Below, in pieces: positions 10,589-37,606 of a stretch of 64,000 nucleotides of DNA. The translations under genes were made by a program, and so were the position numbers. The number at the start of each line of letters is the position of its first letter. Position 1 is the stretch's first letter. Location: positions 27,336 to 91,335 of the forward strand of contig JAEHCQ010000005.1 in assembly GCA_020696385.1 (NCBI GenBank), read 5' to 3'. Source of the stretch: Methanobacteriota archaeon (GTDB lineage: Archaea; Thermoplasmatota; Thermoplasmata; SG8-5; JAGLSY01). A model generated the notes under the pieces. It was not told the origin of the DNA, made no database searches, and saw only the letters and a program-made list of their open reading frames with translations.

Positions 10589-11035
10589 TCATAAAGATAC
10601 AATATTGTCATAGAATTCATTGTATGAGGACATGGTCAATTTGGCAAAAGGATCACAGGACCTGTAATTGTTCAGGAAGTCATTTACAATGTCCTCGGCA
10701 GTGGTCTCGGAGACCGTCAGGATCTGGTCTCCGTTCTTAAGCTCCTGCTTCTTCGTTACCATATCACCATTTCTAAGATACTGGCTTATTGAATACAGGA
10801 TGGTTTTATTGTCATCCATAACAAGCTCGTATTTCAGTTCGAGCTTGTTCTCATTGGATGATATGGTAATGGATGCCTGGCTCTCCGTTATATTTGTGAT
10901 GATCAATTTATCATGCCTCTCTAGCTCTTCCTTTAGGTCATTGAAGGCGAGGCTGGCTATCTCCAGGAAATAACTTTGCTCAATTTCCAGGGACTGCTTG
11001 GCGGAATAACTCATCAAAGCATTATTGATTTTCAA
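10589..11035 (-). CDS. Hypothetical protein
   Basis: 148-aa ORF co-oriented between LKR and SDH; no motif recognised. Confidence 0.55.
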   Translation of the reverse strand: MKINNALMSYSAKQSLEIEQSYFLEIASLAFNDLKEELERHDKLIITNITESQASITISSNENKLELKYELVMDDNKTILYSISQYLRNGDMVTKKQELKNGDQILTVSETTAEDIVNDFLNNYRSCDPFAKLTMSSYNEFYDNIVSL

Positions 11036-11167: not shown

Positions 11168-12469
11168 TCAAAGAAATTCCTGGATATATTCGAAGTCCGG
11201 TGTCAACTTGCCCTGGTGGGTGATGGTCGCCCTTTTAAGCTCAGGTGGCAAGTTCAGTGAATTGAAATCCTTCTTGAAATCCGTAGCAACGATGGCTTTC
11301 ATGAATGGCATCATCTGGCCTCCGAAAAATGTGGATGATTCTCGCGGTAGTTCTGATGGTAAGGTATCGACAGACATGACCACTGGCCCTTCGCCTTCAC
11401 AGCCGTAGACCATCTCATCTGTTTCCGGGAGATAGACATAGCATGGAGTTCCTGGCTCGGTTGCTTCCAATGTGCACTCGACAGATCCCTCGACATCACA
11501 TGTGATATCGCCAAATACCTTCATCTTGGAATCCATTGTCCAGTTATCCTTTATCCATTCCTTTGTGACAAGAATTGGATAATCCGGGGTCCAGTAGATG
11601 CAGTTGACCAGCATACTAAGATTGTCCATATATTGATTGAACATTCCCTTGTACTTTCCAGGGTTATTGAAATAATCATGAAGCTCGAATTGATGATCCA
11701 GGTCTATGGGCTCGAACATATCCTTCTCGTAAAATACTACTTTATAAACTATCTTATTTGAGTATTCTCCAGATTCAATGAAAGCTGCCAGTTCTCCTGG
11801 CTGTATCTCTTTTGTTGGCAGGATGTCCAATATTTCCTGCGCTCCCCTGGAAACATTTCCATAGCCCGCAAAACCAACGACCAATGGGCCAACAGCATCT
11901 GGCAAGCCCTCTGTCTCGATCCATTTACCAACAACTTCCAGGGCAGTCGTTGCCTCATCCAGGCTATTGTATTCCAATGGTCTCTTGAGACCCAGCATGG
12001 GTGTGGTCACACCTTCCCATTTCAGTCTCCTTCCATATGTGTAAAGGGTCTCGATCATGCCAGCCAATCCGGCATAATTGCCGAAGAATACCAGTCTCTG
12101 ATTCTTATCATTGGTCACCCTCTCATAGTCAAGAAGAGTGCCATTGGAATCCAGTATCTTCTGGAGCATGGCCATATTGTAGCTCTGCCCCTTGATCGTG
12201 TGAGAGAAGAAGATGTAAGCCTGATCGTCCACCAGAGCCGGAATGGGGAATTCCTTCACACCCAGCACGAAATCACATCCAGAAAGATCTTCCTGAACAG
12301 TCGCTCCTGCTTCTGTGTATTCCTCATTCTTGAATATTCTTATATCTGATGGCTGGACAATTATCTCCACGCCTTGCTGAACAAGTTCCTTCACATGCCC
12401 CGGTATTAGTGGAACTCTGCGCTCCCATTCGTTCTTGTCCTCTCTTCTTATTCCTATCACGTTAGTCAT
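11168..12469 (-). CDS. Lysine-2-oxoglutarate reductase-like protein (AlaDH/PNT fold; AASS N-terminal half)
   Basis: IGIRREDKNEWERRVPLIP, FFSHTIKGQSYNM, LLDYE, GYGNVSRGA, LVNCIYW, DITCD, SVDTLPSELP. Confidence 0.88.
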   Translation of the reverse strand: MTNVIGIRREDKNEWERRVPLIPGHVKELVQQGVEIIVQPSDIRIFKNEEYTEAGATVQEDLSGCDFVLGVKEFPIPALVDDQAYIFFSHTIKGQSYNMAMLQKILDSNGTLLDYERVTNDKNQRLVFFGNYAGLAGMIETLYTYGRRLKWEGVTTPMLGLKRPLEYNSLDEATTALEVVGKWIETEGLPDAVGPLVVGFAGYGNVSRGAQEILDILPTKEIQPGELAAFIESGEYSNKIVYKVVFYEKDMFEPIDLDHQFELHDYFNNPGKYKGMFNQYMDNLSMLVNCIYWTPDYPILVTKEWIKDNWTMDSKMKVFGDITCDVEGSVECTLEATEPGTPCYVYLPETDEMVYGCEGEGPVVMSVDTLPSELPRESSTFFGGQMMPFMKAIVATDFKKDFNSLNLPPELKRATITHQGKLTPDFEYIQEFL

Positions 12470-12684
12470 GGCAAAACCTCGATGGAGAGGGGATGACCGT
12501 TATAGATAAAAACTTAATGCCAATATTTTTTTATTTATATTATCGGGATTCATTATCGTTAATACACTGGCTCATAAAAAACGATGGCATAATGTAATTA
12601 TTGTCATGTAAAATCTAACACAATCGCATTTCGCGTAATAACCTATATCTATCTGGATAATGAATATAGTATAGAGGATAATTC

Positions 12685-13203
12685 ATGGAATGTCGTGGAT
12701 CTGTTATTTTGGGCTATTTCAAATACATAAAAAAGACATGGGGTCAGCTTGGCGAAGATGAATGTGCTAAAGCTGTTGGCCTGGGTCCTGGCAAGGTCAA
12801 AGAAGCCATATGGTATGATATACGATACAGTGAGAACATACTGGAATGGATATACAAGAACAAAGGTGAAGAAGCGGTTGTCAACTGCGGCACATACACC
12901 GTGAAGGATCTAGGGTTCCTATCATACATTGTCAGATTTGCCAATGTGAAAAAGATAATAGGGCGCGCATCGGAAAGCCATAAGGATGCTTTCAAAGGTG
13001 ATGGCTCCCTCAAGGTGGACATTAAGGACAATAGCGCACTGATAACAATGAAGAACACTGCGATAAGCAAATATTCCTGCCTGGCCTGGAGAGGATGTTT
13101 TATCGGCGCACTGGAGATGACGAACACAACCGGCACTGTAATAGAAAAGCAGTGCCAGCTAAAAGATGCGGACCATTGCGAATTTATTATGGAATGGTCC
13201 TAG
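12685..13203 (+). CDS. V4R-domain protein
   Basis: C-terminal GALEM...VIEKQCQLKDADHCEFIMEW typical of V4R domains. Confidence 0.7.
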   Translation: MECRGSVILGYFKYIKKTWGQLGEDECAKAVGLGPGKVKEAIWYDIRYSENILEWIYKNKGEEAVVNCGTYTVKDLGFLSYIVRFANVKKIIGRASESHKDAFKGDGSLKVDIKDNSALITMKNTAISKYSCLAWRGCFIGALEMTNTTGTVIEKQCQLKDADHCEFIMEWS

Positions 13204-13389
13204 CCACTGCAAATTTGTCATAGAGTGGGTCTGACCATTGCGAATTTATTATGGAATGGTCCTAGCCACTGCAAATTTGTCATAGAGTGGGTCTGACCAT
13301 TGCGAATTTATTATGGAATGGTCCTAGCCACTGCAAATTTGTCATAGAGTGGGTCTGACCATTGCGAATTTATTATGGAATGGTCCTAA
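13173..13389 (+). repeat. Tandem array of seven 31-bp units alternating A-B-A-B-A-B-A (62-bp period)
   Basis: A = ccattgcgaatttattatggaatggtcctag (the V4R gene end); B = ccactgcaaatttgtcatagagtgggtctga; 21/31 identical. Confidence 0.95.
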
Positions 13390-13433
13390 AAAGCCAAACA
13401 AATTAATTTTATACACTACCACCATCCCGTCCC

Positions 13434-13529
13434 ATGAATGTAATTGACCTTGTAGCCGAGCTTGTTTCTATACCCAGAGCACACCCACTTTTTTCTTTTA
13501 AACCTCGCTGTGCTGGATCGGGCTCCTAA
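13434..13529 (+). pseudogene. Truncated 5' fragment of the M20 peptidase (MNVIDLVAELVSIP then 17 unrelated codons)
   Basis: First 14 codons identical to the intact gene; stop at 13527-13529. Confidence 0.75.
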
Positions 13530-13680
13530 ATCAAGCCCATTTCATGTGCTTGATAAAATAGATGCGTGGACTTTGTCCACATCTAAAAAAGAAAAAAGAC
13601 GGACAAATTAAATCAAGCCAGCTGACTTGATCAAAATAAATGCGTGGGTTCAGTAGGTGAAGTCGCATTTAAAAAGAAAG
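13527..13680. mobile_element. Two tandem copies of a double-hairpin dispersed module (third copy at 31476-31568, opposite strand); mobility inferred
   Basis: AATCAA(G/A)C..loop..(G)(C/T)TTGAT-AAAA(T/A)A(G/A)ATGCGTGG..loop..C(GC)AT(C/T)TAAAAA. Confidence 0.6.
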
Positions 13681-13775
13681 TCGCCCGACCCTGCTCACTC
13701 GGTATTGATTGAACCGTAGATTAGTAAATGAGTAAATAAGCAAAATAATTCTATATCCTAGTGCTATTCAACCCC

Positions 13776-14852
13776 ATGAATGTAATTGACCTTGTAGCCG
13801 AGCTTGTTTCTATACCCAGTACACTTGGAAAGACCACGGATATCGAGAACTTCGTGGCTGGCCAGTTATCCGCAATTATCGATACAGAGTTCATCGAGGT
13901 CCCGGGCAAGGGCAGGTGCGTGCTTGCCCGTTCTATCGCGGATGATAAAAAGCCGACCATAATCTTCAATGGGCATCTGGATACTGTCGAGGTGTGCAAT
14001 GGGTGGACAAAGGATCCCTTCAAGCCAGTGATCGAAGGCGATAAGATGTTCGGCCTAGGAACCGCTGACATGAAAGGCGGAGTGGCAGTTGCCATGCTGG
14101 CATTTCAAGAAGCTGTAAGAAGAGGCATCAATGCGATATTTGTCGGGACCATTGATGAGGAAGGAGATTCGGCGGGTGGCTTTGCTATCAAGGATCTGGG
14201 ACTAAAAGCAGATCTGTGCCTGATAACAGAACCCAGCAATGAGAAGATAATGCAGGGCTGTCGCGGCAGGTACGTGGTGGATGTGAACGTGAGCGGAAAG
14301 AGCGCTCACGGAGCTGTGCCCGAGAAAGGGGTCAATGCGATCACAGAGGCTGGCCGCCTGCTCTCCAGATTGGATGAGTTACCCCTAATTCATCATGATG
14401 TTCTGGGAAAGGGTTCCGTATGCCCACTCAGCGTGGGTGGAGGAACCACCACATTATCGGTTCCGGAAGAATGCCGCATTGTCATCGACAGGCATGTTGT
14501 CCCAGGCGAGACAAAGGAAAGTGTGATGCAGGACATACGCAACCTGGCTGGGAAGATAGACAGCCAGGCGACATTCGATGTGGCACTGAACCAGGAAAGA
14601 CCCACACCTTTCCTGGAGCCATATATCACGCAGGATGATGAATTGACGCGCCGATTCATCAGCACAGTCAAAGGCGATATCGCCTACGGGAAGTCAGTAG
14701 GCGATTACAATATATTTGCCACCATGTGCCCCACGATAGTCCATGGGCCAGTAGGGGAGAATTGGCATTCACCAGATGAGTGGGTGTCTATTTCTTCAAT
14801 AGAAAGATGTCTGGAGAACTACATGAGATTCCTTGATGCTTTCAAGGTCTAA
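13776..14852 (+). CDS. M20 family metallopeptidase/deacylase (ArgE/DapE-like)
   Basis: FNGHLDTV, GLGTADMKGG, DEEG, ITEPS, GKSAHGA, HSPDEWV. Confidence 0.92.
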   Translation: MNVIDLVAELVSIPSTLGKTTDIENFVAGQLSAIIDTEFIEVPGKGRCVLARSIADDKKPTIIFNGHLDTVEVCNGWTKDPFKPVIEGDKMFGLGTADMKGGVAVAMLAFQEAVRRGINAIFVGTIDEEGDSAGGFAIKDLGLKADLCLITEPSNEKIMQGCRGRYVVDVNVSGKSAHGAVPEKGVNAITEAGRLLSRLDELPLIHHDVLGKGSVCPLSVGGGTTTLSVPEECRIVIDRHVVPGETKESVMQDIRNLAGKIDSQATFDVALNQERPTPFLEPYITQDDELTRRFISTVKGDIAYGKSVGDYNIFATMCPTIVHGPVGENWHSPDEWVSISSIERCLENYMRFLDAFKV

Positions 14853-20530: not shown

Positions 20531-20788
20531 ATGCGGGGAACCGTGTGAACGATATGCCCTTGGCATGATGTTCACATCGTAGGCCATAAACCCAATTCTC
20601 GAAGCTTACGTCTTGCTTCGAGTCCAGATGAAACATAATGGTGGGTTTACGGCAACCGTTTACTACTTTCGAATCCTATAATGAAAAATGCGGGGAACCG
20701 GATTTCGCACCTACACTTCATTGCGGTGCTCTCTCGAATTTACAAGTAAATTCTCGATCGAACTTCGTTCGAATCCTATAATGAAAAA
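20531..20788 (-). mobile_element. Two tandem structured units (157 and 100 bp), each ending in a copy of the tRNA-Leu 3' end; mobility inferred
   Basis: 37-bp exact repeat at 20668-20704 and 20768-20804; 13-bp copy at 20531-20543; several internal hairpins. Confidence 0.75.
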
Positions 20789-20872
20789 TGCGGGGAACCG
20801 GATTCGAACCGGCGAATCACTAAGAACTAGACCCTGAATCTAGCGCCGTTGACCAGGCTTGGCTATCCCCGC
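20789..20872 (-). tRNA. tRNA-Leu (CAG)
   Basis: GCGGGGATAGCC...CTAGA-TTCAGGG-TCTAG...GGTTCGAATCC...CCCCGCA; long variable arm; CCA not encoded. Confidence 0.95.
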
Positions 20873-20970
20873 ATGGTGTTATGGATAAGCCCTGTAAATT
20901 CAAGAGGTTTATAAAATCTTTGATTGGATTGTATAATTTTCCGCCGATATCCTTATATCATGAAATTATC

Positions 20971-31398: not shown

Positions 31399-31473
31399 GG
31401 GCGCGTAGCCTAGCCAGGATATGGCGCTAGCCTTCTAAGCTAGAAGCCAGGGGTTCGAATCCCCTCGCGTCCG
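31399..31473 (+). tRNA. tRNA-Arg (TCT)
   Basis: GGGCGCG/CGCGTCC acceptor stem, CTAGC-CTTCTAA-GCTAG anticodon arm, GGGGTTCGAATCCCC T arm. Confidence 0.95.
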
Positions 31474-31700
31474 CTCTTTTATTTTTTTAAGATGCGACTT
31501 TATCATTTGATCCCACGCATCTTTTTTATCAAACAAATTTGTAAAAGATTCAGGTAATGAGTTTGATTCGATATGTTTAGAGGACGCGAGGTGGATGAGA
31601 ACGGAGTTCGACGAGATTTTTCTGAATATAATGAAGAAAAAGCGAGCAAGACCTGGATGCTGAAAGCAGACAGGTTGCTGATCCCCTCGCGTCCGCTCTT
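31474..31700 (+). mobile_element. 222-bp structured unit ending in a direct copy of the tRNA-Arg 3' end; mobility inferred
   Basis: atcccctcgcgtccgctctt at 31459-31478 and 31681-31700; inverted degenerate copy from 31582; double-hairpin module at 31476-31568. Confidence 0.75.
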
Positions 31701-31796
31701 ATTTTATTATCTTAATAAATGCGAAGTGTTGTAAACAAAACACTTATCTATTCTCTTTTGATTACTATACTATAGTTAATCCAGGGATGGACCTTA

Positions 31797-37316: not shown

Positions 37317-37427
37317 TCAGTAACGAGCCAGCGCCCTGGATCCACATTCGGGACATTTGCCCATGCCACTGATGTATTCCTTCCAATTATTGCGCATCCA
37401 TGTATGTTTACATTTTAGACATTTCAT
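37317..37427 (-). CDS. 36-aa zinc-ribbon microprotein (below the ORF-track cutoff)
   Basis: MKCLKCKHTWMRNNWKEYISGMGKCPECGSRALARY; TATA-like ttatatata about 30 bp upstream. Confidence 0.75.
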   Translation of the reverse strand: MKCLKCKHTWMRNNWKEYISGMGKCPECGSRALARY

Positions 37428-37571
37428 AGTATCATATTCAAAGTTATGTATATTCTTATATATAAGGATGGCTTGGGAATTCCCAGATGTACCCACTGAT
37501 GTATTCCTTCCAATTATTGCGCATCCATGTGTGTTTACATTTTAGACATTTCATAGTATCATATTCAAAGT
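37366..37571. repeat. 79-bp direct repeat (37366-37444 and 37493-37571; one mismatch) covering the microprotein leader and first 21 codons
   Basis: Offset 127 bp; the mismatch is a synonymous CAT/CAC. Confidence 0.93.
37456..37554 (-). pseudogene. Chimeric or truncated second copy of the microprotein (32 aa, only one CxxC)
   Basis: MKCLKCKHTWMRNNWKEYISG followed by YIWEFPSHPYI. Confidence 0.6.
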
Positions 37572-37578
37572 AAAATTT

Positions 37579-37606
37579 ATGAAAGGCCAGTTATCTGGCC
37601 TTTCAT
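37579..37606 (-). terminator. Hairpin after pycA
   Basis: ATGAAAGGCCAG/CTGGCCTTTCAT perfect 12-bp stem. Confidence 0.7.

Follow-up and report, generated by a model that had tools for sequence, protein, structure and literature searches.

In silent and orphan C-terminal cassettes, such as those of the pilS type and the orphan Rhs and CdiA-CT segments, an unexpressed alternative segment is located just downstream of the expressed one. Tandem repeats are another feature of gene boundaries, and mycobacterial MIRUs are generally described as 40–100-bp tandem units in the intergenic regions of operons (PMC12548453, in part). Archaeal mobile elements use tRNA genes and the 3'-distal parts of protein-coding genes as integration sites, and those with tyrosine recombinases form arrays through the re-use of one such site (PMC6563490).

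An uncultured archaeon of the Thermoplasmata lineage, whose nearest species representative is the MAG SF.bin51 (91% protein identity), carries a locus that shares features with each of these systems. In the 64-kb window (the whole stretch of DNA that was analysed), the last codons of a gene for a small V4R-like protein are repeated in alternation with a second, related gene end. The array lies behind the gene's real stop codon and is probably a young and likely unstable minisatellite, to which a recombination scar gave rise by amplification.

Two gene ends in alternation

Tandem Repeats Finder reports a tandem repeat at 13171–13388 with a period of 62, 3.5 copies, 100% matches, 0 indels, and a score of 436. 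The original prediction, made from the letters of the sequence, had recognized the array itself and placed its limits at 13173–13389, a shift of 2 nt. With head-to-tail copies of high identity and a period above the 10-bp minimum, the array has the make-up of a minisatellite. When the array is cut into 31-bp pieces, the order of the pieces is A B A B A B A, i.e., three AB pairs and a final A, in which unit A is GACCATTGCGAATTTATTATGGAATGGTCCT and unit B is AGCCACTGCAAATTTGTCATAGAGTGGGTCT (starts in Table 1). Ten of the 31 positions distinguish A from B, nine of them by a transition; the units match in register at 21/31 (68%), and the longest in-register stretch that they share is 5 nt. The repeat finder and the unit cut thus reproduce the order and the numbers of differences given in the original prediction. 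A degenerate 25-mer that fits both A and B has seven matches in the window, all of them in the array, and none in 100 shuffles.

The open reading frame of the gene terminates within the first A unit, as ...DADHCEFIMEWS-TAG, with the peptide DHCEFIMEWS*. In the same register, B reads SHCKFVIEWV-TGA, and the B-type gene end is written as AGCCACTGCAAATTTGTCATAGAGTGGGTCTGA. The reading frame and the frame translations therefore agree with the earlier claim that A is the real gene end and that B, in the same register, has a stop codon of its own. From A to B, the codons change D to S, E to K, I to V, M to I, and S to V, while the His codon and the second Glu codon change synonymously and the stop codon remains a stop codon. 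The stop codon of each unit takes its last two bases from the start of the unit that follows (T plus AG for A, T plus GA for B), where the same two bases also open the Ser or Asp codon. Since three units make 93 nt, the second B unit at 13264 is in frame with the gene, behind its TAG.

Table 1. Coordinates of the host gene, the array with its seven units, and the features downstream of it (positions in the window)
Feature	Position	Strand	Basis
172-aa host gene (V4R-like sequence, H-NOX-like predicted fold); A1 contains its final 10 codons and stop	12685..13203	+	ORF, Pfam, AlphaFold, Foldseek
Whole array, (A B)x3 + A	13171..13388	+	62-bp period, 3.5 copies, 100% identical
Unit A1, native gene terminus DHCEFIMEWS by its likeness to relatives; TAG completed by B1	13171..13201	+	ORF; A-type ends in L005 and L001
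Unit B1, probable fossil terminus SHCKFVIEWV; TGA completed by next A; frame +1 relative to gene	13202..13232	+	Unit cut, profile score
Unit A2, same as A1, untranslated	13233..13263	+	Unit cut
Unit B2, frame 0 with gene, behind TAG	13264..13294	+	Frame translations
Unit A3	13295..13325	+	Unit cut
Unit B3	13326..13356	+	Unit cut
Unit A4, last unit, reads into downstream flank, where the stop is TAA	13357..13387	+	Unit cut
Second, diverged M20 promoter copy (igX), then a 47-nt copy (13431–13477) of the M20 gene start	13396..13477	+	Self-comparison
263-nt insert between the M20-start copies, hairpin-rich, absent from L005 and L001	13478..13740	.	Comparison with relatives
Promoter igY (orthologous to L005 and L001) and intact M20/ArgE-type peptidase gene, ATG 13776	13741..14852	+	

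The gene that ends in the array

Against the Pfam V4R family (PF02830), the host protein scores 17.4 bits, which is under the gathering cut-off of 31. Among its relatives, 6 of 11 match V4R at E≤0.01, with a best value of 1.4e-5, and two match DUF2378. The AlphaFold model of the protein (pLDDT 89.6) aligns in Foldseek over its full length with solved H-NOX domains, with a TM score of 0.73–0.79, E of ~1e-7, and ~183 columns, as compared to a TM score of ~0.5 for TRAPPC3/Bet3, which has the V4R-related fold. A terminal beta-strand spans residues 165–171 of the model. The alignment and the model together identify the last ten residues, i.e., those repeated in the array, as the terminal core beta-strand with a near-invariant C165 and W171.

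H-NOX domains bind haem by means of a proximal histidine and a Y-x-S-x-R motif. In the alignment of the host family, H99 is found in close relatives only, and the sequence Y130-S-C-L-A-W-R stands where Y-x-S-x-R would be expected, without fitting it. Conservation falls instead on C132, C157, C165, and W171. A search of 1.84 billion representative proteins at E≤0.001 gave 429 family members, which usually end in C-x-[FY]-x-x-x-W-x-stop. The host protein may belong to an unstudied archaeal family of small H-NOX-like/V4R sensors.

Where did unit B come from?

The closest relatives of the gene have A-type ends, identical to A at 26/33 nt in L005 and at 27/33 nt in L001, so on this comparison A is the native gene terminus. 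The status of B was examined with a position-specific score, for which 71 family members supplied their C-terminal 10 residues. On this scale the A terminus has 23.9 bits and the B terminus 21.0, while the family mean is 20.2. The next question is how often mutation of A alone would give such a score. In 400,000 trials in which A received 10 random substitutions (nine transitions and one transversion), 0.10% of the mutants reached the score of B or exceeded it, and 0.045% did so when both stop codons were required. When the simulation was conditioned on the 5-bp stem being kept, the probability of B's score was 0.17%, so a neutrally decayed duplicate of A was rejected even with retention of the stem imposed. 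Another candidate, template switching at a quasi-palindrome of A, was rejected from a by-eye comparison, in which B was no nearer to the reverse complement of A than to A itself.

Because its family-like score is reached by only about 0.1% of mutated A sequences, B is best regarded as the gene end of a diverged homolog. The score supports the view that B would once have served as the translated C-terminus of a functional, unsampled homolog and come to its present place later; the first description of the array had already suggested a diverged homolog as its source. The score also means that B encodes a plausible alternative to the expressed segment (21.0 bits against the family mean of 20.2, P ~0.001). 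The nearest real terminus to B is that of P0005/L003, SHCEFLIEWV, at 25/33 nt, as compared to 21/33 nt between the A and B termini.

Several searches for the donor of B came back empty. A degenerate pattern (H-C-[KE]-F-x-I-E-W-V-stop) had no match in viral contigs. Among 21 loci from one genome per species and three loci from JGI metagenomes, no B-type end was nearer than 25/33 nt, and no array was found. A protein search with a B-ended chimera against a collection of 5.8 billion proteins returned the same 10 relatives and no donor, and the 64-kb window holds no paralog of the host gene.

How old is the array, and how long?

A tandem repeat at the gene end is absent from all 27 of the other homolog loci, including those of the 91% and 87% relatives. 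In the two relatives just mentioned (L005 with 91% identity and L001 with 87%), the gene has a single terminus, and its stop codon is followed within 13–70 nt by the promoter and gene of the M20 peptidase, with no repeat. Identity between the 62-bp copies is 100%, against 68% between A and B, which indicates that an older heterologous pair was amplified recently. This distribution indicates an array that is young and specific to the lineage.

The origin of such an array can be pictured in two steps. Recombination or repair would first have put B, 31 bp from the gene end of a homolog, in register between two native A's, producing A-B-A. A template switch onto foreign homologous DNA and a decayed integration at the 3' end of the gene are candidate events. 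The junctions would have needed only 1–2 nt of microhomology, AG and GA, which also complete both stop codons. The anatomy of the array then suggests that, with identical A's 62 bp apart, slipped-strand mispairing or unequal recombination could have extended the trio to (AB)3A. The 29-nt quasi-palindromic units would favor either process. Of the two options in the original prediction, a switchable C-terminus and an amplified recombination scar, it is the second that the evidence supports.

The length of the array differs between two assemblies of the same strain. The second one (JAEHCP010000070.1, locus L004) encodes an identical protein and is 100% identical over 5.6 kb, but it has ABA, i.e., 1.5 copies instead of 3.5. 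One could read this disagreement as a sign that an assembler made the array or set its length. However, the A-to-B and B-to-A junctions are common to both assemblies, and the merging of two alleles cannot give these, so the ABA core is real. Tandem repeats also tend to be collapsed, not inflated, by short-read assemblers, and ABA is on a 6-kb contig, much more fragmented than the window, which would make ABA the likelier artefact of the two. An artefact of assembly is therefore highly improbable. The 3.5 and 1.5 copies reflect either real variation or a short-read collapse at L004, and collapse is likely because the L004 contig has 6 kb and the window at least 64 kb.

Does the array change the protein?

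It had been proposed that slippage could switch the C-terminus of the protein, and recombination could in principle do the same. The strand DHCEFIMEWS would be swapped for SHCKFVIEWV, and the properties of the sensor would be altered. As a bona fide terminus of the family, B retains H164, C165, F167, and W171, and the strand it would replace is a core strand with a near-invariant Cys, so that a swap could matter. The arithmetic behind the proposal was also correct, since a deletion of 31 bp that put B1 in the place of A1 would be in frame.

The geometry of the array argues against this, however. Slippage between identical copies proceeds in steps of 62 bp, A1 is never displaced, and the reading frame of the gene stays intact. 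The protein is invariant to copy number because A1, with its stop codon, always remains first. Gain or loss of units thus leaves the expressed product unaltered, in contrast to phase-variable frame switching. Homologous recombination between A and B would have at most 5 identical bases in a row, in register, to work with, which is insufficient. There is only one type of alternative cassette, and no homology block, upstream or otherwise, is shared that would permit the exchange of silent cassettes. A is also first in the only other assembly, L004, in which no B-first or chimeric variant is found. The idea of a switch by slippage thus fails, and a C-terminus switched by any route is very hard to credit.

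A related candidate is the decoding of the TAG, by read-through or as pyrrolysine, into the in-frame B2. It was rejected, as TAG is an ordinary stop codon here that ends 10 of the 45 long open reading frames, and recoding to B2 is unlikely for the same reason. It follows directly from the sequence that a change in copy number would alter only the length and the folding of 3' untranslated or intergenic DNA, and not the protein. Any effect of the array would be incidental, for example that of a long hairpin in a read-through transcript.

Folding of the array

Each unit is a 29-nt quasi-palindrome, with the unit boundaries at the foot of the stem. In unit A, a 7-bp stem (GACCATT/AATGGTC) encloses 15 nt, with a predicted energy of -9.2 kcal/mol (z -2.8). 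The 5-bp stem of unit B reaches -5.7 kcal/mol (z -0.3), so that its hairpin alone is no better than those of shuffled sequences. The whole array is predicted to fold into one long hairpin of -88.7 kcal/mol (z -5.5). The two synonymous changes from A to B (CAT/CAC and GAA/GAG) do lie opposite each other in a CCAYT/ARTGG stem, as had been claimed; as a compensatory pair they carry little evidential weight, since two synonymous changes have a roughly even chance of such a placement.

Across 20 homologous termini, 67.9% of the cells in the stem alignment are paired, as compared to 62.3% in shuffles, the sequences being related. Pair 6-24, which is synonymous, is CG in six of the termini, UA in six, UG in three, and unpaired in five. 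The covariation score was attained by 1 of 500 shuffles, a control that relatedness alone is known to exceed, and for four of the seven stem pairs the His-Cys and Glu-Trp codons leave no choice. The covariation of the stem across homologs is thus suggestive only.

These values raise the question of whether the array is a structured 3' element, in which a long hairpin in the V4R transcript, or a cruciform in the DNA, would act as a stabilizer, a terminator, or an insulator before the M20 gene. The energy of the array and the covariation of the stem in homologous gene ends would fit such a role. On the other hand, tandem quasi-palindromes of any kind fold in this way, the lone B hairpin is unremarkable, and the covariation is subject to the kinship and codon constraints just given. 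A search of Rfam with positions 12400–14000 at E≤1 gave no match. The array is present in no relative, which means that nothing conserved depends on it. A structural role of this kind is accordingly quite improbable. The placement of the unit boundaries at the stem foot fits slippage promoted by a hairpin, and it fits a dyad-symmetric target for recombination as well. This placement and the borderline covariation count against the amplification of a mere scar, as they leave room for a sequence- or structure-specific process or a function; the same is true of a fold far stronger than that of shuffled sequences, which pure neutrality does not require.

Duplicated ends in the neighborhood

Within ~7 kb, the neighbors of the array encode a saccharopine dehydrogenase, a LOR/AlaDH-like protein, the M20 peptidase, L18Ae, a prefoldin, and FtsY, and there are no integrase or element genes among the annotated ones. 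Among the points in favor of an amplified scar is the presence of other short-range duplications of gene ends, both in the same intergenic region and in the wider window.

In the duplication just downstream of the array (13396–13822), the copy of the M20 start is identical to 13773–13819, and the preceding 35–38 nt of the two copies are ~60% alike. The upstream copy would open a short, dead-end open reading frame at 13434. The 263-nt insert between the two copies consists of two ~78-nt modules with two hairpins each. On the minus strand, the insert has a folding energy of -75.2 kcal/mol (z -4.1) and terminator-like hairpins followed by T-runs, and it has no match in Rfam. One 50-nt module of the insert is 80% identical to the hairpin and T-run just 3' of a tRNA-Arg gene (31484–31532), and a compensatory change of the stem distinguishes the two (AGATGCG/CGCATCT versus AAATGCG/CGCATTT).

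Two tRNA genes in the window have repeated 3' ends. For tRNA-Leu(CAG), on the minus strand at 20788–20873, a stretch made up of the 3' 17 nt and 26 nt of flanking DNA recurs at a distance of 100 nt (20662–20704 and 20762–20804, 95%), and a further partial copy lies near 20531. The whole set (20531–20873) looks like att-type remnants. The 3' end of tRNA-Arg(TCT) at 31459–31486 is repeated 222 nt away at 31681–31708 (89%), and a 56-codon open reading frame from near 31574 spans the second copy. This region (31399–31760) may be the remnant of an integrated element.

Gene starts are duplicated as well. For a small, zinc-ribbon-like open reading frame of the minus strand (ATG 37424, MKCLKCKHTWMRNNW...), a second copy of the promoter and of the first 59 nt lies 127 nt upstream (37493–37580, one mismatch; region 37317–37580), in the same architecture as the M20 duplication. 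Two other features of the window deserve a mention. At 10589–11035, between the saccharopine dehydrogenase and LOR/AlaDH-like genes, a minus-strand open reading frame of 148 aa has a weak match to LAGLIDADG (19 bits, under the cut-off). In L002 the homologous interval has different genes, and the 6-kb contig of L004 begins within this reading frame. At 1723–1892, in a divergent promoter region, there are two tandem 80-nt units, 73% identical and 82 nt apart, each with the motif TCTAATCGCTAGTAA and together forming a 38-nt inverted repeat. These could be operator sites.

Is the array a used attachment site?

One could also consider the 29-nt dyad-symmetric gene end, with its 7-bp arms and 15-nt spacer, as a site on which a site-specific recombinase acts. 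In that case a mobile element from another host would have brought B, its own copy of the site, and repeated rounds of integration, excision, and decay would have left the array behind. The palindrome foot falls on the unit boundaries, and the direct A...A repeats flank B as the repeats of an integrated element would, while close relatives (L005 and L001, at 91% and 87%) have the single terminus of an empty site. Archaeal elements use the 3' ends of protein-coding genes and build arrays by the re-use of sites (PMC6563490), and several att-like duplications, at tRNA 3' ends and gene starts, are found in the window.

The contents of the array argue the other way. What lies between the A repeats is a 31-bp insert that is homologous to the target, with no element genes or recognizable remnants, and neither an integrase nor element genes are found between or beside the units. 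The units are pure A or pure B, not the hybrids expected from a crossover in a central core, and three identical B's suggest amplification rather than three separate events. On mobile elements, neither A nor the M20 start had a match in 2.9 million viral contigs or in the phage and plasmid collections, and B-type ends were equally unmatched in these sets. A match of the hairpin motif in the viral contig L029 was rejected as a chance match within a coding sequence. An attachment site used repeatedly is therefore an unlikely source of the array, and amplification of a recombination scar is the reading we retain.

A bolder version would make the dyad-symmetric last 29 nt of the gene family a recombination target of which B is a copy, carried by a mobile element or a system for the exchange of gene ends. 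In that case the array would be the trace of repeated exchanges at the terminal strand, with its Cys, of an H-NOX/V4R-like sensor, and rare exchange between A and B could yield functional variants. This is very unlikely. If it did hold, it would amount to a new means of varying a sensor domain's core strand.

What can be learned from the array

As an amplified scar, the array would be an evolutionary record. It holds what is probably a 31-bp fossil of a homolog's gene end, inserted in register and with a coding nature that can still be recognized. Along with the duplications of the M20 start and of tRNA ends in its vicinity, it suggests that integration or repair often leaves scars at the gene ends of this uncultured Thermoplasmata lineage. 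If its copy number varies in nature, the array would be a convenient strain marker. It also calls for caution in annotation. CRISPR finders may call such an array, assemblers disagree on its copy number, and its layout tempts one toward a reading as phase variation, which the geometry excludes.

Comparison with known systems

The likeness to CRISPR is that of partly palindromic 31-bp repeats alternating with 31-bp intervening segments. However, the "spacers" of this array are all identical and are 68% identical to the "repeat," and a conserved gene terminates in the first repeat. No cas genes or leader are found within ~7 kb of the array, where the neighbors are metabolic and housekeeping genes. 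A CRISPR array was rejected because the three B's are identical to each other and homologous to A (21/31 in register).

As in pilS and the Rhs and CdiA-CT systems, B is an unexpressed alternative C-terminal coding segment located directly downstream of the expressed one. The cassettes of those systems have hundreds of bases, come in several kinds, and share conserved blocks for exchange, and the toxin cassettes are accompanied by immunity genes. The array, in contrast, has a single 10-codon cassette without a recombination handle.

The archaeal attL and attR sites resemble the array in that the last tens of bases of a gene form a direct repeat, relatives have an empty site, and the site may be re-used (PMC6563490). 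They differ from it in what the repeats enclose, which here is 31 bp homologous to the repeat itself and free of element genes, and in the three identical B's that point to amplification.

The MIRUs and similar VNTR loci offer the last comparison. MIRUs are dispersed and apparently mobile, with many loci per genome, whereas the unit of this array occurs once in the window and nowhere else that was searched. A MIRU is a repeat unrelated to its gene, while the array unit is composed of the gene's own terminus and that of a homolog. In both systems, units of tens of bases are joined head to tail at a gene boundary, every unit brings a stop codon that is in register with the adjacent gene, and slippage is expected to change the number of copies.
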